A stretch of DNA of 64,000 bases from an uncultured Actinomycetes bacterium (GCA_964474045.1 CAYYRC010000006.1:33262-97261); one strand, 5' to 3'; positions 8,771 through 58,722 are shown, numbered from the stretch's first letter. The notes: generated by a model not told the origin, from the sequence alone. A program made the numbers and translations.

Positions 8771-11043
<2,273 letters not shown>

Positions 11044-46955: not shown

Positions 46956-47576
46956 TCAGCTCCAGCCCTTGGTCATGTGGAGCTCGAAGTTTTTGAAGTA
47001 GTCCGAGTCGCCGTGGCGCTTGCCGGTGAACGCCGCGCCCGCGATGGGGGACACGTAGTGGTGCACGGTGCCGACCCAGTAGGACTTCGACTGGTAGCTC
47101 ACCGACAGCCAGGGACAGCCCCAGGCCGGGTTCTCGCCGTCCACCTCGATGGCCTTGAAGACGCTGTTCTCCTTCGCGTCCTCGGCGCTGCGGAAGACGC
47201 GCAGCTGCACGTCGTCCACGCCGGCGAAGTTGCCCGTGTAGGCCTTGGACTGGCCGGGCTGCAGGGCGGTGGCGCTGAACCAGCTGGTGAAGACCTCGTG
47301 TTCGCGCACCCAGACCGTGCTGCCGGTGTCGTTGCGGAAGGTCACTCGGGTCCCCTTCGTGAACGAGGCGTCCGACTCCGTCTCGGCCGCGGGCGTCGCC
47401 GGTGCGGGCGCCGTGGCCGCTGGTGCCGGAGCGGGCGCCGTGGCCGCTGGCGCCGGAGCGGGCGCAGCTGGCGCGGCGAAGGCCGGGACGCTGGCGAGGC
47501 CGGCGATGGAGCCCGCGGCGAGCAGGGCCGCAGCTGCACGGCGTGCGAATCGCGTGGTCGTGGTGGTGGTTGCCAT
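46956..47576 (-). CDS. Secreted protein of unknown function, paralog A (signal peptide, Pro/Ala linker, 135-aa C-terminal domain)
   Basis: MATTTTTTRFARRAAAALLAAGSIAGLASVPAFA signal. GAGGAG RBS. 98/135 residues identical to 53611..54240 by hand alignment. Confidence 0.8.
   Translation of the reverse strand: MATTTTTTRFARRAAAALLAAGSIAGLASVPAFAAPAAPAPAPAATAPAPAPAATAPAPATPAAETESDASFTKGTRVTFRNDTGSTVWVREHEVFTSWFSATALQPGQSKAYTGNFAGVDDVQLRVFRSAEDAKENSVFKAIEVDGENPAWGCPWLSVSYQSKSYWVGTVHHYVSPIAGAAFTGKRHGDSDYFKNFELHMTKGWS
47398..47475 (-). repeat. 27-nt tandem repeat (about 2.7 units) encoding APAPAPAAT units in the paralog A linker
   Basis: gccggtgcgggcgccgtggccgctggt followed by gccggagcgggcgccgtggccgctggc, read directly. 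Confidence 0.85.
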
Positions 47577-47599
47577 GGGGTACTCCTCGTTGGTCGCTT

Positions 47600-47622
47600 C
47601 AGTGGTTGCTGCGTCCAATGTG
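47600..47622 (-). promoter_or_regulatory. 23-nt block identical to 54264..54286, 24 nt upstream of the paralog A start (5' UTR or core promoter)
   Basis: cagtggttgctgcgtccaatgtg on the plus strand in both copies, at the same distance from the ATG. Confidence 0.6.
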
Positions 47623-47657
47623 AGGGCGCCCCGAACCGACTTCAATGCCGTGCGAAC

Positions 47658-47693
47658 CGAAACCGTTTTCGACTCTGGTGGAAACCGATTTCA
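47658..47693. promoter_or_regulatory. Two 14-bp palindromic boxes, CGAAACCGTTTTCG (47658-47671) and GGAAACCGATTTCA (47680-47693), 22 bp centre to centre
   Basis: Read directly. The same pair occurs at 54322..54357 upstream of paralog B. Confidence 0.6.
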
Positions 47694-47959
47694 CGCTCGG
47701 GAGCCCCTCCTGACCACCGGACATGACGTCGGTCGATCCTCGGCCGGCAGGGCTTGACGGGATTGCTGTCCGTTCGGCTGACACCGGAGTCCCCTCCCCG
47801 GCCGGCGATGCGAACGAGAGCTGCGCGGGGACATCTACCCCGGGGTAGGTGCGGATCGTGGGTGCCAGGTCCGAATCCTCTTGGGGCAAGGCGAGACCTA
47901 CCCGGTGCTGGACCAGAATGGAGGTGTTGGACCAGGTTGGAGTTGCTGTCGGCCGCTGA

Positions 47960-47980
47960 GAACTCGTCAGCGACGAGTTC
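47960..47980. promoter_or_regulatory. Perfect inverted repeat GAACTCGTC-AGC-GACGAGTTC, 31 nt upstream of the deaminase-lipoprotein start
   Basis: Read directly. It could be an operator or a 5' UTR hairpin. Confidence 0.4.
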
Positions 47981-48010
47981 GATGTCAGTGTCGTGAGGTT
48001 GGAGCAGGCC

Positions 48011-49408
48011 ATGGAGCATGGTCACGCGGTATCGCGCCGGTCGGCGCTCAAGCTTGGGCTGGGCGCCGCGGGGGCCACGCTCTTGCCGGGGGTCGCCGGC
48101 TGCGCCACTGCCGCGATGCCTGGTGGGGCCGCCTCGTCCGGGGCGTCCGGGTCGTCGGCAACCGGCGTGGCCTCCCAGGGCGGTGAACCCGCGGTCCCGG
48201 GATCGGTCCACGACGCCGAGCAGGCGGCCCAGGTCGCGCTCGCCATGGCTCGGCTGGCGGCGAGCGCCCAGACCTTCGCGGTCGGCGGGGCCATCATCGA
48301 GAACAGCAGCGGGCGGGTCATCCACGCGCTGCAGAACCGCGTGCTGCAGGATCTCGGCACCGGCCTGGGGCCCCTCTCGGACACCCCCTACACCCAGGAC
48401 CCGACGGCGCACGGCGAGCGCCAGCTCGTCTACTGGTACTTCGCCAATCGCGAGTCCGGCCTGTTGCCGCCGCCGCAGGAGCTGACGGTGGTCACGTCGC
48501 TGGATCCCTGCGCCATGTGCGCCGGCTCGTTGACGTCGGCGGGCTTCCACACCGCGGTGGTGGCCCTGGACGACTTCGCCGGCGTGAACTTCAACGGCAA
48601 GACGGACTTCGCCGGGTATCCCACCGGAGTCGGCGACGCGCTGCGCGGCACCTTCGGGTACTACGGCGTCGACGGCGGGCGAGCCTTCGCCGGCGCGCCC
48701 AACACGCTGTTCGCGAGCACGGCCGTCACCGCAACGACGGCAGCGGCCTGCGGCGACGTCTTCGGCTCGACCGCGGATGGCGTCCGGGCCGCGAGCAGCG
48801 GATCGGGCCTGGACCCCGCCAACCCTGACAACAACATGTCCGATCCGGCCAACTCGTCGATCAGGGGGCCGTACTCGCTGAGCTTTCCCGACGCGTTCAC
48901 CATCCGCCTCGCCGACTACCGACGGCCCGACGCGGTCCTGCGCGATTACCTGACCGGGCTGGTGGAGCGCACGCCTGGCGCCCGCAACGCCGTTGCGCTG
49001 ATCGACTTCTACGGCAACCTGCTGATGGCCTCGGCGGACCGCTTCGACATCAATCCCATCGCCACCGCCTTCATGACCACCACGCAGGAGTACGCCCGCC
49101 TGCGCTTCGCGCTGGTCGACGATCCGGTCACCAGCGCGGTCGCGCAACGCACGCTCACCAGTCCGGCGCACGGCACGTTCGTGTTGCTGCACGCCCTCGA
49201 CGGCGTGAGCACGCTGGGATTGAAGGATCTGGGGGCCTACGGCTCGAGCATGGAGGGCAAGATCCCGGTCACGCAGCCGAGCAACTTCCAGTACTTCGAG
49301 GGCCCGCTGCAGGGGACCGTCGCCGACCTGACCGCCCTGATCGCCGCGATGCCGCCGTTCTACACGAAGCTTGTCGGCATCGACCCGCAGCAGGTGGTCC
49401 TGGACTGA
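48011..49408 (+). CDS. Tat-signal lipoprotein with N-terminal TadA/CDA-fold deaminase domain and unknown C-terminal domain
   Basis: SRRSALKLGLGAAGATLLPGVAGC carries a twin-Arg motif and a lipobox. DPTAHGE ..29 aa.. LDPCAMCAGS forms an HxE/PCxxC zinc site. ATG 48011 follows GGAG by 6 nt; the ORF track starts at 47993. Confidence 0.75.
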   Translation: MEHGHAVSRRSALKLGLGAAGATLLPGVAGCATAAMPGGAASSGASGSSATGVASQGGEPAVPGSVHDAEQAAQVALAMARLAASAQTFAVGGAIIENSSGRVIHALQNRVLQDLGTGLGPLSDTPYTQDPTAHGERQLVYWYFANRESGLLPPPQELTVVTSLDPCAMCAGSLTSAGFHTAVVALDDFAGVNFNGKTDFAGYPTGVGDALRGTFGYYGVDGGRAFAGAPNTLFASTAVTATTAAACGDVFGSTADGVRAASSGSGLDPANPDNNMSDPANSSIRGPYSLSFPDAFTIRLADYRRPDAVLRDYLTGLVERTPGARNAVALIDFYGNLLMASADRFDINPIATAFMTTTQEYARLRFALVDDPVTSAVAQRTLTSPAHGTFVLLHALDGVSTLGLKDLGAYGSSMEGKIPVTQPSNFQYFEGPLQGTVADLTALIAAMPPFYTKLVGIDPQQVVLD

Positions 49409-49435
49409 GCGCTGGCCGGCTTGGCCCGGCCGTGA

Positions 49436-49488
49436 CAGGTTTGTGCCCGAAAACGGCCCGCCGGTGGTGGTTTTCGGGCACAAACCTG
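49436..49488. repeat. Long-hairpin repeat copy A: 19-bp perfect arms CAGGTTTGTGCCCGAAAAC / GTTTTCGGGCACAAACCTG with a 15-nt loop
   Basis: Read directly. It lies between the convergent stops at 49408 (+) and 49511 (-). Confidence 0.85.
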
Positions 49489-49510
49489 ACGCGAGAGGCT
49501 GCAACCGGCA

Positions 49511-52048
49511 TTAGCTGCGATGCTCGACACCCGGTGTCTTTCGCCAACGCGCCGCCGCGGCGATGGCTTCGTCTCGCCCGCTCACGTCCAGCTTGCGGTA
49601 CAGGCGTCGCAGCCGGGTCTTGATGGTGTTGGTGGAGACGCCGAGCTCCGCGGCCATCTGGGCCTGTGTTGCGCGACTGGGCAACCGTGCCAGCAGCTCG
49701 ACCTCACCTGGGCTCAGCCGCGGCCCATCCGGGTCTCGCGGCGCGGCGAGCGGTCGCAACGACAGGGGATCGCCGTCCTCGCCGGGTCGCTCCGCCCCGT
49801 CCCTCGCACTAGTCGCCGCCGGCAGAACCACCCCTTGGTCGACCGCCAACTGCCGGAATCCCGGATGCTCTGCGAACACCCCGGCCAGACCGTGCCGCCG
49901 CGCGATCTCGACGGCCCCACGCACGTGCGCCGCATCATCCTGACTCGCGGCTGCCAGGCTGCTTGCCTGAGCCAGCAGGATGCGGCGCTCCAGGGCGCTG
50001 CGCGGTTGCCCGGTGGACAGCGCCCCCAGCGCTCGCGCCACCTGCGTCGGTCGTCGTTCCAGGAACGACCAGGCTGCCAACAGGGTCCTGTCCGCCGACG
50101 GCGGCAGCTGCCTGATCACCGCCTCGGCGGACTCGGCATCGCCTGCGACGAGCAGAGTCCGCGCGTGCGCTCGGTTGACCTCCGGCCACAGGCCGCTTTC
50201 GGGGTTGACCGCCCGTAACTGCGCTCGGGTCCGATGCAGGATGTCGAAGGCGGAGTCGATCTGTCCGGCGCGCACGTCGACCGCGCACCTTTGGAGTCGG
50301 GCATGCGTCAGGCCCCCCGTCGACGCGCGTCCCGAAGCCACCGCCTCGGCCCGCAGCAGCAGGTCCCGCGCCTGCGCGAGCTCGCCCTGTTCGAGCAGCA
50401 CCCCGGCCTGCGCCACCACGAGCGTCAGGTGAGAAAGGGCCGTCGTCGTCGCGCCGCGCGACTCGAGGAAACGGCGCGCGCCTTCGAGGTCTGCGGCGGC
50501 CTCATGCATGTGTCCCTGCCGTGCCGCTGCGCCCGCCCGTACCGCCCGGAAGGACACCTCCCGGATCATGTCGTTGGGCATGTCTCCGACCCGAAGCCGG
50601 GCCAACTCCGCAGCAGCCTCCTCGGTTCGGCCCTCCCACAGGAGTCCGCGTGCGACGACGACGGGCGCGAGCTGGTGGGAGTTGGCCGTGTAGTCGTCGC
50701 CGAAGGCGGCTACCGCGGACCGGGCGGCGGCGATCATCCCGGCGGTGTCCGCCATCGCCCCGGCCAGGCACGCCGACAGCAGCTGGACCTCGCCCCGCAC
50801 GGCGGCGCGCTGGGCGGCCTCCAGTTCCGCCGCGATGGACGACACCAGCCAGGCTTCCAGGCGCGCGAGGCACTGTCGGACCATCGTGGTGTCCCCGCCC
50901 CACAGGGAGGCCCAACCTATCCGCAGCTCGTGCTCTGTGGAGCTGGCCCACGTGGTGGGGGGAAGGTCGGAGTACCAGGTGAGCGCCAACTCGGCCTGGC
51001 CCGTGGTGATGAGGTGTACCTCGACGTCTCGCAGCTGCTCGCCAGCCTCCTGGTATCGACCGGCCTCGATCAGGTGGAAGATCGCGGATTCGACCTCGCC
51101 GCGCTCGACGTAGTGCTCGGCCACGCGCTGATGGGCCTCGAGCCTCTCGCTGCGGCTGCCCCCGCCGCCTCGCGACGCCAGCGCCGCCGTCAGCAGTCGG
51201 TGCCTACGCCAGCGCGGTGTGGCGTCGGTCGTGACGTCGCGGCAGAGCAGGCCCTCGCTGCGGGTGATGCTGCGCAACAACTGCTGAGAGTCATCGGCGT
51301 CGCGGACGACGTCGCACGCGGGCGCATCGAGCCGATCCAGCATGGCGGTCTCGCGCAGGAAGGCCTGCTGCGCCGACGTCAGCGATCTCCACCACGGCGC
51401 GACCGCGACCTCGGCGCCGTGCTGCCCCAACCATCGGGCCACCGCCTCGGTCCGCGCGGGCCCTTCGGACACCCGACGCAGCCGGGACGCCGCAAGCACC
51501 AGCGGCGCCACCCAGCCCTCGCTCAGATCGATGATGCGTGCCACCTCCGGCGCCTGCGGTGATCCCGGGGCGAGCAGCTCCAGCACGGCATGGGCCTCCT
51601 CGTCGGTGAAGGCCAGGTCGGATCGGTCGAGCAGGATCGATCCCGGGAAGCGCAGCGTGACCTCGTCCAGCGACTCCTGCGAGCTCATGATCAGCCCCGA
51701 CCAGATGGCGACGTCCTCAATCAGCGCGGCGCGCGCTTCCTCGGCTTCCGAGCTCGACGCCACACCGTCGCAGTCCACCAGCACGTAGCGGATCCGGCCT
51801 TCGCCCCGGGCATCCTCCAGGCGCCGCCGCAGTCGGACCCACGCGCCCGGGTCGTCGGCCGCGACGCTCACCAGCTGCGCCGACTCCGGGCCGGCCCTGG
51901 CCGCGGCCTGCCGGAGCGCTGTCGTGCGGCCGAATCCCGTCGGTGCGCTCAGCAGGCACGGCGCGTGGGGCGCCGCCGCCAGCATTAAGTCGGCCAGCCT
52001 CGACCGCACCAGGGTGGTGGGGCCGAGGACGGCCGACTCTGCGTTCAC
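49511..52048 (-). CDS. LAL-type (MalT-like STAND NTPase + TPR-like + LuxR/GerE HTH) transcriptional regulator
   Basis: N-terminal P-loop LLSAPTGFGRTTAL (MalT has SAPAGYGKTT). Long helical-repeat middle region. C-terminal QAQMAAELGVSTNTIKTRLRRLYRKLDV. GTGA overlap with the upstream gene. Confidence 0.85.
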   Translation of the reverse strand: MNAESAVLGPTTLVRSRLADLMLAAAPHAPCLLSAPTGFGRTTALRQAAARAGPESAQLVSVAADDPGAWVRLRRRLEDARGEGRIRYVLVDCDGVASSSEAEEARAALIEDVAIWSGLIMSSQESLDEVTLRFPGSILLDRSDLAFTDEEAHAVLELLAPGSPQAPEVARIIDLSEGWVAPLVLAASRLRRVSEGPARTEAVARWLGQHGAEVAVAPWWRSLTSAQQAFLRETAMLDRLDAPACDVVRDADDSQQLLRSITRSEGLLCRDVTTDATPRWRRHRLLTAALASRGGGGSRSERLEAHQRVAEHYVERGEVESAIFHLIEAGRYQEAGEQLRDVEVHLITTGQAELALTWYSDLPPTTWASSTEHELRIGWASLWGGDTTMVRQCLARLEAWLVSSIAAELEAAQRAAVRGEVQLLSACLAGAMADTAGMIAAARSAVAAFGDDYTANSHQLAPVVVARGLLWEGRTEEAAAELARLRVGDMPNDMIREVSFRAVRAGAAARQGHMHEAAADLEGARRFLESRGATTTALSHLTLVVAQAGVLLEQGELAQARDLLLRAEAVASGRASTGGLTHARLQRCAVDVRAGQIDSAFDILHRTRAQLRAVNPESGLWPEVNRAHARTLLVAGDAESAEAVIRQLPPSADRTLLAAWSFLERRPTQVARALGALSTGQPRSALERRILLAQASSLAAASQDDAAHVRGAVEIARRHGLAGVFAEHPGFRQLAVDQGVVLPAATSARDGAERPGEDGDPLSLRPLAAPRDPDGPRLSPGEVELLARLPSRATQAQMAAELGVSTNTIKTRLRRLYRKLDVSGRDEAIAAAARWRKTPGVEHRS

Positions 52049-53478
52049 GTGCGGTGCGCCTCCGCCACCAGGTCGTAGTCGTGGTTGTTGATCTGACGGT
52101 ACGCCATGGCGAACTGCGCGATCGCCTCGTCGAACTCGTCACCGCTGCCCAGGTAGCCGCCGATGAGGCTGGCATCGCCGGTGCGGGCGTGCGCCCTGGC
52201 CAGCACCGCGCCACAGACCCGGCCGTATCCGCGCAGGGCGCTGGCGTCGAGCATCTCCGGCTCGATCGCACCCTTGAAGTCCTTCAGCTGCCGTAGGAAG
52301 TACTCGTGGTCGCGACCGCTGGACCAGCCCAGGAACGGGTCGCCGCTGGCCTGCATTGCCTGCGTCCCCAGCACCACCCGCTGGCCGTGGTGGTCCAGCG
52401 GCGACTTGCCCAGGTAGCGCTCGAGCACCGACTCGCTGGCCTGCTTGATCTGCAGCAGCAGCGGCTCGCCGTCGCCGGACTCCAGCAGCACCACGAGCGC
52501 CCGCGTGCCCACGCTCCCGACGCCCACCACCTTGTGCGCGACGTCCACGAACGAGTAGCGCGCCAGCAGCGCCAGGCGGTCCGGGGCGAGCGTGGCCAGG
52601 TACTCGGCGTACAACGCGCGCAGTCGGGCCACGACGTCATCGCGATGGTCCTCGGGAACCCGCACCAGCACGGGTGGCTCGTCGCGGAAGATCCGCCCTG
52701 ACGGCGTCATCGTCGTCATCTTCATGGTGGCGGTGTTGGCGGTGCGGCCGAGGGCCTTCTTGCGGGCTTTCTTCGTGGCCTTCGCCAGCGATGACTTGCC
52801 CTCGGCGTCCACCAGGTTGTCCACGTCCAGGCGCGCGTACCAGACGTCCAGGGTGGGCATCTCGGCCAGCTCGGCGATGGTCTCGCGGTAGGCGGCCGCC
52901 GCGCCTTGCGCGGCCCTGCGACCCACCTTGTCCGGAAGCTCGAGCGCCGTGGCGGCCACCGCGAGGCTTGCGGCGAGGCGCTTGACGTCCCACTCGAACG
53001 GCCCGGGCAGCGTCTCGTCGAAGTCGTTCAGGTCGAACATGAGGCCGCGGTCGGGGGCGGCGAACATTCCGAAGTTGGACAGATGCGCATCCCCGCAGAG
53101 CTGAGTCCGGATGCCGGTGGCCGGGATCAGGGAGAGGTCGCTGGCCATCACCGCCGCCGCACCGCGCAGGAACGTGAACGGGCTGGCAGTCATCCGCTCG
53201 TAGCGCAGGGGCACGAGTGCCTGCTCGCGGTTGGCGTCCTGTTCGGCGAGGAGAGCCACGGGGTCCCGACGGGCGTCCGGAACGGGTACGTCCGCGTGCG
53301 TCGCGAGCGGGACCGCGTCCCGCACTGACTCGCCCTGGGCGGCCCTCTCGGCGCGGCTGCGGCGGGGACTGCTGAAGAACGACTGGGCAGTGATCGGGGA
53401 GGTGGGGGGCTCTGTGGTTGGTGTCTCGGTCACGTGGCCATGGTGACCTCCGGTTGGGGCGCGCGCCAGAGACGTCAC
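52045..53478 (-). CDS. DUF2252-family protein (protein-kinase-like fold predicted)
   Basis: PFTFLRGAAAVMASDL, LCGDAHLSNFG and MFDLNDFDE, which are HGDxHxxN-like and DFD-like motifs. Confidence 0.75.
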   Translation of the reverse strand: MTSLARAPTGGHHGHVTETPTTEPPTSPITAQSFFSSPRRSRAERAAQGESVRDAVPLATHADVPVPDARRDPVALLAEQDANREQALVPLRYERMTASPFTFLRGAAAVMASDLSLIPATGIRTQLCGDAHLSNFGMFAAPDRGLMFDLNDFDETLPGPFEWDVKRLAASLAVAATALELPDKVGRRAAQGAAAAYRETIAELAEMPTLDVWYARLDVDNLVDAEGKSSLAKATKKARKKALGRTANTATMKMTTMTPSGRIFRDEPPVLVRVPEDHRDDVVARLRALYAEYLATLAPDRLALLARYSFVDVAHKVVGVGSVGTRALVVLLESGDGEPLLLQIKQASESVLERYLGKSPLDHHGQRVVLGTQAMQASGDPFLGWSSGRDHEYFLRQLKDFKGAIEPEMLDASALRGYGRVCGAVLARAHARTGDASLIGGYLGSGDEFDEAIAQFAMAYRQINNHDYDLVAEAHRT

Positions 53479-53539
53479 CCTCGGCGGGTGACAAGCGGCG
53501 GCGCCTGAGCCGGGACCGGCGTCGCCCGCACGGCCGGGA

Positions 53540-53592
53540 AAGGTTCGTACCCGAAGACGGTCCGCCGGGTGGCGTCTTCGGGCACAAACCTT
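53540..53592. repeat. Long-hairpin repeat copy B (20-bp arms, 2 mismatches that become G-U pairs in the minus-strand RNA)
   Basis: AAGGTTCGTACCCGAAGACG / CGTCTTCGGGCACAAACCTT. It starts 19 nt downstream of the paralog B stop on the minus strand. Confidence 0.8.
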
Positions 53593-53610
53593 GACCGGGT
53601 CGGCCTCAGG

Positions 53611-54240
53611 TCAGCTCCAGCCCTTGGTCATGGTCAGCTCGAACTGCTTGTAGTGCGACGTGTCGCCGTGGCGCTTGCCGGTGAAGTGGGCGCCGGCGAT
53701 GGGGGACACGTAGTAGTGCTGGGTGCCCACGCTGTAGTACTTGGACTGATAGCTGACCGAGAGCCAGGGGCTGGACCAGGCGGGGTTCTCGGCGTCGACC
53801 TCGATGGCCTTGAAGACGCTGTTCTCGCGGGCGTCCTCGGCGCTGCGGAAGACGCGCAGCTGTACGTCGTCCACGCCGCCGTAGTTGCCGTGGTAGGACC
53901 TGGTCTCGCCCGGCTGCAAGACGTCGGAGGCCCACCAGTCGGTGAAGGCCTTGTGCTCGCGCACCCAGATAGCGCCGCCGCTCGCGTTGCGGAAGTACAC
54001 GGACGTCCCCTTCGTGAACGAGTTGTCGCTATCTGCAGCGGGCGCGGGCGCCGCGGGAACGGCGCCGACCTCGGTGGCCGGGGCGGGGGCTGCCGGGGCG
54101 GGGGCTGCCGGGGCGGGGGCCGCCGGCGCCGGGGCCGCCGGCGCAGCGAGGGACGGCACGGCGGTGAGGCTCGCGATGGAGCCGGCGGCCAGCAGCGCCG
54201 CCGCTGCGCGGGCCGCGAGTCGGGTCGTCTTGGTGGTCAT
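53611..54240 (-). CDS. Secreted protein of unknown function, paralog B
   Basis: MTTKTTRLAARAAAALLAAGSIASLTAVPSLA signal, (AAPAP)n linker, and a C-terminal domain about 73% identical to paralog A. Confidence 0.8.
   Translation of the reverse strand: MTTKTTRLAARAAAALLAAGSIASLTAVPSLAAPAAPAPAAPAPAAPAPAAPAPATEVGAVPAAPAPAADSDNSFTKGTSVYFRNASGGAIWVREHKAFTDWWASDVLQPGETRSYHGNYGGVDDVQLRVFRSAEDARENSVFKAIEVDAENPAWSSPWLSVSYQSKYYSVGTQHYYVSPIAGAHFTGKRHGDTSHYKQFELTMTKGWS
54077..54141 (-). repeat. 15-nt tandem repeat (about 4.3 units) encoding (AAPAP)n in the paralog B linker
   Basis: gccggggcgggggct x3 followed by degenerate units, read directly. Confidence 0.85.
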
Positions 54241-54263
54241 GGGGTGCTCCTCTTCGGTTGCAT

Positions 54264-54286
54264 CAGTGGTTGCTGCGTCCAATGTG
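54264..54286 (-). promoter_or_regulatory. 23-nt block identical to 47600..47622, 24 nt upstream of the paralog B start
   Basis: Read directly. Confidence 0.6.
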
Positions 54287-54321
54287 CGGGTGCCGCGATG
54301 GGAGTTCAATGCCCCTCGAGC

Positions 54322-54357
54322 CGAAACCGATTTCGACCTGACCCGAAACCGTTTTCG
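54322..54357. promoter_or_regulatory. Two palindromic boxes, CGAAACCGATTTCG (54322-54335) and CGAAACCGTTTTCG (54344-54357), 22 bp centre to centre
   Basis: Read directly. They lie in the 217-bp divergent region between paralog B and the MDR dehydrogenase. Confidence 0.6.
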
Positions 54358-54457
54358 GACGTCGGGTGGCGACGCAGCTCGGGGTCGGGACCTGTCGCGG
54401 CGCCAGTGAAAAGTGGATTCGGAGTTCGGCTGTGGTGAGTCCTCGTAACCTGCTGTC

Positions 54458-58663: not shown

Positions 58664-58722
58664 GACAGGCTTGTGCCCAAAGACCGTCTGCCGGTGGTTG
58701 TTTTCGGGCACAAACTCGACGC
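58664..58722. repeat. Long-hairpin repeat copy C (sequence-similar to copy A including flanks gacagg..gacgcg)
   Basis: GCTTGTGCCCAAAGAC / GTTTTCGGGCACAAAC arms. It starts 8 nt after the NERD gene stop on the minus strand. Confidence 0.8.

Follow-up and report, generated by a model that had tools for sequence, protein, structure and literature searches.

Organization of the locus

The region considered here (positions 46956-54457) forms part of a 64-kb stretch of DNA from an uncultured Actinomycetes bacterium (GCA_964474045.1 CAYYRC010000006.1:33262-97261), the whole of which is referred to as the window; comparison loci from other assemblies are designated by L numbers. The guanine-cytosine content of the region is high, about 70%, and near-identical copies of it were found solely in metagenome assemblies labelled Actinomycetota or Actinobacteria. 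Open reading frame (ORF) mapping and domain searches recovered five genes, in the order and on the strands given by an earlier note on this DNA. Two copies of a small secreted gene, parA (46956..47576) and parB (53611..54240), both on the minus strand, bracket a lipoprotein deaminase gene on the plus strand (48011..49408) and two further minus-strand genes, which encode a MalT-like regulator of the LAL (large ATP-binding regulators of the LuxR family) type (49511..52048) and a protein-kinase-like protein of the DUF2252 family (52045..53478, with a start at 53433 in public assemblies). The two divergent control regions, of 434 bp and 217 bp, agree with the intergenic lengths. Copy A of a hairpin repeat (49431..49493) separates the convergent deaminase and LAL genes, and copy B (53534..53598) lies between parB and the DUF2252 gene. 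The earlier note took the whole arrangement to be a single extracytoplasmic module, in which a sensory and regulatory pair controls a small set of exported proteins. The analysis described below favours a different reading, that of a mosaic assembled from separate units.

The secreted paralogs and their family

Both paralogs encode a Sec-type signal peptide, a Pro/Ala-rich linker and a 135-amino acid domain predicted to form a beta-sandwich. Over their full length the two proteins are 67% identical (E 7e-80), and an exact count over the last 135 codons reproduced the 98 identical residues of 135 that had previously been counted by hand. The duplicated unit is larger than the gene itself, extending from the distal box of the promoter to the stop codon (about 47695 to 46956 and 54357 to 53611); similarity ends on both sides of it. 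Across this unit the copies are about 80% identical, with identical runs of 32, 29, 24, 24 and 22 nt, and the synonymous p-distance between the genes is 0.26. Purifying selection acts on the two genes (omega 0.2-0.6). Evolution is faster in parA, with omega values against other copies of 0.37-0.62 compared with 0.27-0.41 for parB, and parA is no nearer than parB to L027, its own syntenic counterpart. The linker of parA includes, at 47393-47470, a 27-nt periodic repeat present in three copies, and linker lengths differ between the paralogs.

The family to which these proteins belong is tiny. It comprises 14 clusters in a search of 5.8 billion proteins and 32 representatives (one of them spurious) among 1.84 billion, and is present in 3 of 185,579 species genomes; every taxonomically labelled match comes from an uncultured member of the Actinomycetes or Actinomycetota. 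Members are mostly about 180-210 amino acids long, with a low-complexity linker joining a signal peptide to the domain, which carries three invariant motifs, DDV(E/Q)LR, D-x-ENP and R-x-x-D-x4-K-x-F, with acidic and polar residues kept. Searches of Pfam and NCBIfam with the paralogs returned no match at E <= 0.01, and a sequence-profile search of the PDB with the domain returned nothing significant. Judged by its sequence, the domain represents an undescribed and very rare actinobacterial family. A 3393-amino acid HYR-repeat protein (P0018) was rejected as a member, its profile-search match being spurious. In distant members the domain occurs as a tandem pair (P0019) or is fused behind an SBP_bac_3 solute-binding domain (P0031) or behind a weak Calx-beta match (P0027). 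At L012 (4741-5052; metagenome-assembled genome (MAG) JAUPKO01) a paralog gene persists as a 3' fragment alone (residues about 104-207), directly behind an unrelated ORF, and this fragment is probably a pseudogene remnant.

An AF2 model of the domain, built from 34 sequences, has a pLDDT of 91.8 and is an all-beta sandwich with one short helix. When it was compared with the PDB by Foldseek, the best matches were ostreolysin A, actinoporins and fungal fruit-body lectins, with borderline scores (6myk, 9eyp, 4tsy and 3lim; TM 0.48-0.58, root-mean-square deviation 5-8 A, E 2e-3 to 1e-2). With a best E-value of only about 2e-3, the likeness is at most one of fold and does not amount to family membership. 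Binding to an extracellular ligand, either membrane or glycan, is a possible role of the paralog proteins.

A conserved double-box promoter

The earlier note pointed to an upstream signature shared by parA and parB, made up of two palindromic boxes 22 bp apart and an identical block. Both features are present (the block measures 24 nt), and within the 64 kb they are found at the two paralog promoters only, with a box count of 3 observed against 0.33 expected. The block is ruled out as a special element, similarly long identical runs being found in the coding part. Moreover, given the synonymous p-distance of the paralogs, their promoter identity stands at about the level of neutral divergence and is on its own no proof of constraint. 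The real evidence of a regulatory element comes from conservation of the promoter across genomes. It was recovered in six sequences from at least four organisms (window A, window B, L005, L016, L017 and L027), all of which contain two boxes spaced 22 bp apart. Each box is 14 bp long, CGAAAnCGGTTTCG, with an invariant core, GAAAnCGGTTTC, that is unchanged in 12 of 12 instances. The boxes are followed in all six promoters by TTGAAs, 17 nt and CACAkT, and the spacers and 5' untranslated region (UTR) vary. This promoter is kept with or without a regulator gene nearby.

The -35 and -10 elements were assigned from this conservation and from the 17-nt spacing; a generic promoter and terminator scan of the region found nothing. 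On this assignment the parA promoter (47617..47693, minus strand) comprises a distal box (47680-47693), a proximal box (47658-47671), a putative -35 element TTGAAG (47640-47645) and a putative -10 element CACATT (47617-47622). The parB promoter (54281..54357, minus strand) has the same layout, with boxes at 54344-54357 and 54322-54335, a putative -35 element TTGAAC (54304-54309) and a putative -10 element CACATT (54281-54286). The box centres would then fall near -54 and -76, an activator-like position, and their geometry would suit an activator, or some other dimeric factor, bound twice on the same face of the DNA. With the double box, the TTGAAs -35 and the CACAkT -10 common to all six promoters, parA and parB almost certainly share their regulation, as had been proposed. 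A literature search for the box sequences returned unrelated primers only.

The DUF2252-LAL cassette

The DUF2252 protein matches its Pfam family over the full length (PF10009; E 1.2e-134, 449.7 bits against a cut-off of 22.3, profile positions 1-388 of 392), and the coupling of this gene to the LAL gene that had been noted is borne out by a 4-nt overlap between them. DUF2252 proteins have been grouped with protein-kinase-like folds, and a permutation of their N and C lobes has been suggested (preprint 10.64898/2026.09.18.752743).

The LAL protein carries a C-terminal LuxR/GerE helix-turn-helix (HTH) (9.5e-07, 28.8 bits against a cut-off of 23.5) and a precomputed match to the winged-helix family PF25873 (WHD_MalT), but aligns only partially to the MalT equivalog NF003420 (1e-30, 106.7 bits against a cut-off of 537) and has no Pfam match to AAA_16 or AAA_22. 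Its P-loop is degenerate, as the earlier note recognized: the Walker A region reads APTGFGRTT, in which the GFGRTT segment lacks the lysine demanded by the GxxxxGK[ST] pattern. This lysine is absent from all six members of the LAL subfamily, which have R, A or V in its place (GRTT, GRST, GATT, GVTT), whereas distant LAL proteins keep GTGKT or GAGKT.

The close relatives of this LAL fall into six clusters, and each one with a usable flank has a DUF2252 gene directly before the LAL gene. The two genes are adjacent in all five loci concerned (the window, L018/L019, L020, L021 and L023), which upholds the view of LAL and DUF2252 as a genuine conserved pair. A distant LAL, with 28% identity, lacks a DUF2252 neighbour, and DUF2252 homologs on plasmids lack a LAL neighbour; the pairing is thus specific to a small actinobacterial clade.

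The cassette also has a signature of its own. A perfect palindrome, GTCACCC-N5-GGGTGAC, occurs once per cassette locus, 40-85 nt upstream of the DUF2252 gene, and nowhere else in the window or the 26 loci compared (window, 53474-53492; L018, 8559-8575; L020, 149-165; L021, 985-1001; L023, 6371-6387). Its arms are invariant and its loop varies. It is distinct from the paralog boxes and has no copy in the promoters of the paralogs or the deaminase. It is a candidate operator through which the cassette might regulate itself, or else may form a stem-loop at the 5' end. In L018 (12495-13457), L021 (4925-5896) and L023 (5287-6240) the cassette adjoins an orthologous FUSC_2 (fusaric-acid-resistance-like) membrane protein gene, the products of which are 55-91% identical; it lies downstream on the same strand in two of these loci and is divergent in the third. 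No FUSC_2 homolog was found in the window. In the relatives, cassette loci contain no paralog, no deaminase and no paralog boxes. The cassette is read as autonomous, a kinase-like protein translationally coupled to a MalT-type regulator and equipped with its own candidate operator, the palindrome.

The predicted exported deaminase

The deaminase gene encodes a protein of 466 amino acids with a PF00383 (dCMP_cyt_deam_1) match (7.6e-08, 32.6 bits against a cut-off of 25). The earlier description of it as a twin-arginine translocation (Tat) lipoprotein with a deaminase domain is supported by this match together with a Tat motif, SRRSALK, followed by LLPGVAGC with the lipobox VAGC; on these motifs it is predicted to be exported as a lipoprotein. 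The zinc-binding N-terminal domain has its HGE and PCAMC motifs intact, and residues H135, E137, P167, C168 and C171 are invariant across 36 homologs. An AF2 model (pLDDT 89.8) was compared by Foldseek, and the N-terminal domain matched Msd/Msmeg3575, TadA, ADAT2, guanosine and guanine deaminases and yeast cytosine deaminase. Structure prediction, a check that the earlier note proposed for the unknown domains, places this domain within the cytidine deaminase (CDA) fold and gives a borderline answer for the paralog domain. By Pfam match, motifs and modelled fold, the protein is assigned to the zinc deaminases of the CDA superfamily. No NCBIfam equivalog and no PDB relative detectable by sequence was found for it.

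The family, as delineated from sequence, is a widespread one of Tat-exported lipoprotein zinc deaminases. It includes more than 340 matches of about 450 amino acids from across phyla, with source names including Chitinophagaceae, Polynucleobacter and Mycolicibacterium; HxE and PCxxC do not vary, and an RR motif together with a lipobox is found in the majority of members. The conserved, uncharacterised C-terminal half has, in the model, the CDA-like secondary-structure order alpha-beta-beta-alpha-beta-alpha-beta, and this order suggests, without proving, that a second CDA-like domain devoid of zinc is present. When the profiles of the N- and C-terminal halves were compared with each other, no signal emerged (probability 0.1). 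The enzyme would act on a free base or nucleoside-like compound at the cell surface. A literature search on exported deaminases yielded nothing useful and no characterisation.

A role as a polymorphic-toxin deaminase (MafB19-like or DddA-like) was considered and rejected, the MafB19-deam match scoring 23 bits against a cut-off of 27 and the N-terminus being a Tat-lipoprotein signal. No small conserved gene of the immunity type was found downstream of the deaminase gene at the window, L013 or L014 loci. The homologs at L013 (Mycolicibacterium) and L014 (a 6.7-Mb genome) have no paralog, LAL or DUF2252 gene nearby, and both adjoin unusually long non-coding stretches of 1.0-1.4 kb (L013, 9338-10731; L014, 6937-8001). 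That of L013 contains a tRNA gene (10403-10485). No riboswitch was detected in either; an Rfam search upstream of the window deaminase gene likewise found no riboswitch.

Hairpin repeats and the joining of the pieces

Both hairpins reported previously exist, with folding energies of -47 to -53 kcal/mol and z-scores of -4.6 to -5.7. Their stems of 19-20 bp lie at gene 3' ends and are not followed by a T-run. The hairpin is a dispersed repeat: another intergenic region, at 58668-58716, has a degenerate third copy, and a 1.65-kb contig from a relative has another two. With Rfam, the region and six source sequences yielded only chance miRNA-like matches on the hairpin, together with two tRNAs in relatives.

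L016, from a close relative, carries in succession a hairpin, the double-box promoter, a parB-like gene, a hairpin and the 3' end of a convergent deaminase gene, with no cassette. In the window a hairpin copy stands on each side of the cassette, in direct orientation, and the outer flanks of this pair match the flanks of the single hairpin of L016. At L027 the synteny of parA with an abhydrolase gene is kept, and the cassette from the same sample (L021) resides in the FUSC_2 context. L005 and L018, which belong to one assembly and have equal coverage, place the paralog and deaminase genes on one contig and the cassette on another. Insertion of the cassette at the deaminase/parB hairpin in this lineage would explain these arrangements most simply, the alternative being that it was lost from the L016 lineage by hairpin-hairpin recombination. 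A third possibility, that the cassette and deaminase were joined by recombination between FUSC_2 genes (one follows the deaminase gene in L005 and another the LAL gene in L018), was ruled out because identity between these FUSC_2 proteins is only about 25% and no FUSC_2 gene is present in the window.

A probable mosaic of three independent units

The gene-neighbourhood check proposed for the module went against it: among 23 loci examined by tblastn, none outside this genome contained all four gene families. Co-localisation is confined to the DUF2252-LAL pair, in five of five loci, and to the paralog-deaminase pair, in close relatives only. This corresponds essentially to the old duplication with an unrelated insertion that the earlier note listed among the outcomes that would refute it. 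The stretch is best read, with a probability of roughly 60%, as a mosaic of three independent units and not as one conserved functional module. The first unit would be the small Sec-secreted beta-sandwich gene, duplicated along with its promoter; the second, the deaminase gene, which close relatives repeatedly carry near the paralog gene; and the third, the DUF2252-LAL cassette, which would not serve as a dedicated local regulator of the exported proteins. The original proposal also stands in its view of the paralogs and the deaminase as predicted exported proteins with no assigned function.

Several points weigh against the mosaic. The paralog-bearing assemblies, namely the window genome, ERZ25038477 (L005 and L018), SRR24765301 and MAG JAUPKO01, also carry the cassette, with the limit that a shared sample is no proof of a shared genome. 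A LuxR-type HTH acting upstream of a -35 element would fit the LAL protein, and the box positions, with the activator geometry derived from them, depend on a putative promoter. The fold match of the paralog domain is borderline, all biochemical roles are putative, and the rearrangement may have been either an insertion or a deletion. With both rare families present in these assemblies, LAL could still regulate the paralogs in trans.

A rather doubtful, though tentatively arguable, alternative holds that the paralog protein and the exported deaminase form a functional pair at the cell envelope, with the LAL cassette as an unrelated passenger. The two genes lie 0.1-5 kb apart in three different arrangements. 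In the window, parA and the deaminase gene are divergent with 434 bp between them; in L016 the pair converges across a hairpin, as it would for the window parB were the cassette removed; and in L005 both genes share a strand, at a distance of 5 kb. All of the genomes concerned are close relatives, however, their deaminases being 77-88% identical, and with such kinship inherited synteny is enough to explain the proximity. Furthermore, the distant paralog loci L006-L010 have no deaminase gene within up to 10 kb, the deaminase homologs at L013 and L014 are not accompanied by a paralog, a Uma2 gene takes the place of the deaminase gene upstream in L017, and the deaminase family has a far wider distribution than that of the paralogs. 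A functional link between the two is possible. The genes that separate them in L005 (4119-7612) encode an aldo-keto reductase, a NarL-type response regulator, a PspC-domain histidine kinase and a PspC-domain protein, a set reminiscent of systems for cell-envelope stress; at L010, a NarL-type regulator gene is found 3-4 kb from the paralog gene.

The factor that acts at the twin boxes could also be of a type other than LAL. In one such proposal a LacI-type factor, or another from outside the LAL class, is encoded elsewhere and has the boxes as its operators, and the paralogs belong to a sugar or nutrient regulon. Operators of the LacI family are even palindromes with a central CG and the core nGnAAnCGnTTnCn, and the box fits the AAnCGnTT core pattern. 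Distant paralog genes have a single related palindrome, CCGGAACGTTTCGG in L007 and L008 and CCGAAACGATTCGG in L010; a LacI gene directly follows the paralog gene in L006-L009, and the divergent neighbour of the paralog gene in L010 contains a CBM60 carbohydrate-binding module. Against this, an adjacent LacI gene is found in L006-L009 only and the 64-kb window has no homolog of it, the half-site spacing is unequal between the double-box and single-box versions, and the boxes lie upstream of the putative -35 element and not over the promoter, which would be unusual for a repressor. This proposal is considered unlikely.

The single module envisaged originally, in which DUF2252 and LAL perceive a signal and LAL uses the twin boxes to activate the promoters of the two paralogs, and possibly that of the deaminase, is also improbable. 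It draws on the adjacency of the genes in this genome, the location of the boxes upstream of the putative -35 element, as is typical of activator sites, the LuxR-type HTH of LAL, and the presence of both rare families in the same assemblies. Yet the adjacency is restricted to this genome, and the boxes are kept at paralog loci that have no adjacent LAL (L005, L016, L017 and L027), which tells against LAL and DUF2252 as local regulators of the exported proteins. In addition, the cassette lacks the boxes and conserves another palindrome instead, FUSC_2 is its usual neighbour, and it is missing in L016 from the exact deaminase/parB junction. A more elaborate version is very unlikely: that the LAL without a Walker A lysine and its coupled DUF2252 protein constitute a new two-protein switch, in which the kinase-like protein replaces a lost ATPase cycle, and that this switch was recruited here to control a secreted actinoporin/aegerolysin-like family and a surface deaminase as a newly assembled extracytoplasmic module. 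It is scarcely plausible that the upstream block and boxes work as an RNA leader or riboswitch-like element instead of DNA operators for, although each box could form a 5-bp stem and the 5' region is conserved as far as the ribosome-binding site, there is no Rfam match, covariation is absent because the box arms are invariant, the conserved -35/-10 pair with its 17-nt spacing lies downstream of the boxes, and the 5' UTR sequence differs among orthologs.

Implications

If the mosaic reading is true, it counsels caution, since a paralog bracket around a regulator can arise from duplication and from insertion of a cassette at a repeat, with no functional link needed. Of the leads that emerge from this locus, the most useful are the cassette and the family of exported deaminases. 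The conserved pairing of DUF2252 with a MalT-type regulator devoid of the P-loop lysine, along with a candidate operator, could be tested to arrive at a first function for DUF2252, and the widespread Tat-exported lipoprotein deaminases, with their catalytic residues intact, mark a real gap, namely a predicted extracellular zinc deaminase with no known substrate. The paralogs, for their part, add an undescribed and extremely rare secreted beta-sandwich family, the sharply conserved double operator of which is a handle for finding its regulator.

Comparison with known systems

The three units and the hairpin each resemble a known system in part. The paralog domain is predicted to be, like the aegerolysins and actinoporins (ostreolysin A, FraC, sticholysin II) and the fungal fruit-body lectins, a small secreted beta-sandwich of ~135 amino acids with a similar topology (Foldseek probability 1.0). 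However, it is only 9-14% identical to the aegerolysins and actinoporins, with no sequence similarity and no Pfam aegerolysin match, and it differs from aegerolysins in having its own invariant motifs and no partner pore-forming protein nearby.

The hairpin shares a stable stem, a position at gene 3' ends and its repetition with REP-like (repetitive extragenic palindromic) intergenic hairpins and with the terminators of high-GC genomes that lack a U-tract. It departs from these in that its loop is also conserved and in that two copies flank a two-gene cassette; conservation of both loop and stem suggests that this lineage has a family of REP-like elements.

In common with the MalT/LAL regulators, which belong to the STAND (signal transduction ATPases with numerous domains) class, the window LAL has a winged-helix domain, helical repeats and a C-terminal LuxR/GerE HTH within about 800-850 amino acids. 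Its subfamily is set apart by the loss of the Walker A lysine, by the lack of the AAA_16/AAA_22 matches that distant LAL proteins have, by a score far below the MalT cut-off and by the DUF2252 gene that always precedes it, often overlapping. Elsewhere, DUF2252 homologs that are 44-46% identical occur on Streptomyces and Caballeronia plasmids with no LAL neighbour.

The deaminase, finally, has the HxE and PCxxC motifs and the N-terminal domain fold of the free-base and tRNA deaminases of the CDA superfamily (Msd/Msmeg3575, TadA, guanine/guanosine deaminase and yeast cytosine deaminase), but is predicted to be exported, belongs to a family of about 450-amino acid proteins and possesses an extra conserved C-terminal half. 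TadA is a cytoplasmic homodimer of about 150-170 amino acids that acts on tRNA, a description that the window protein, with its Tat signal, lipobox, 466 residues and additional half, does not fit.

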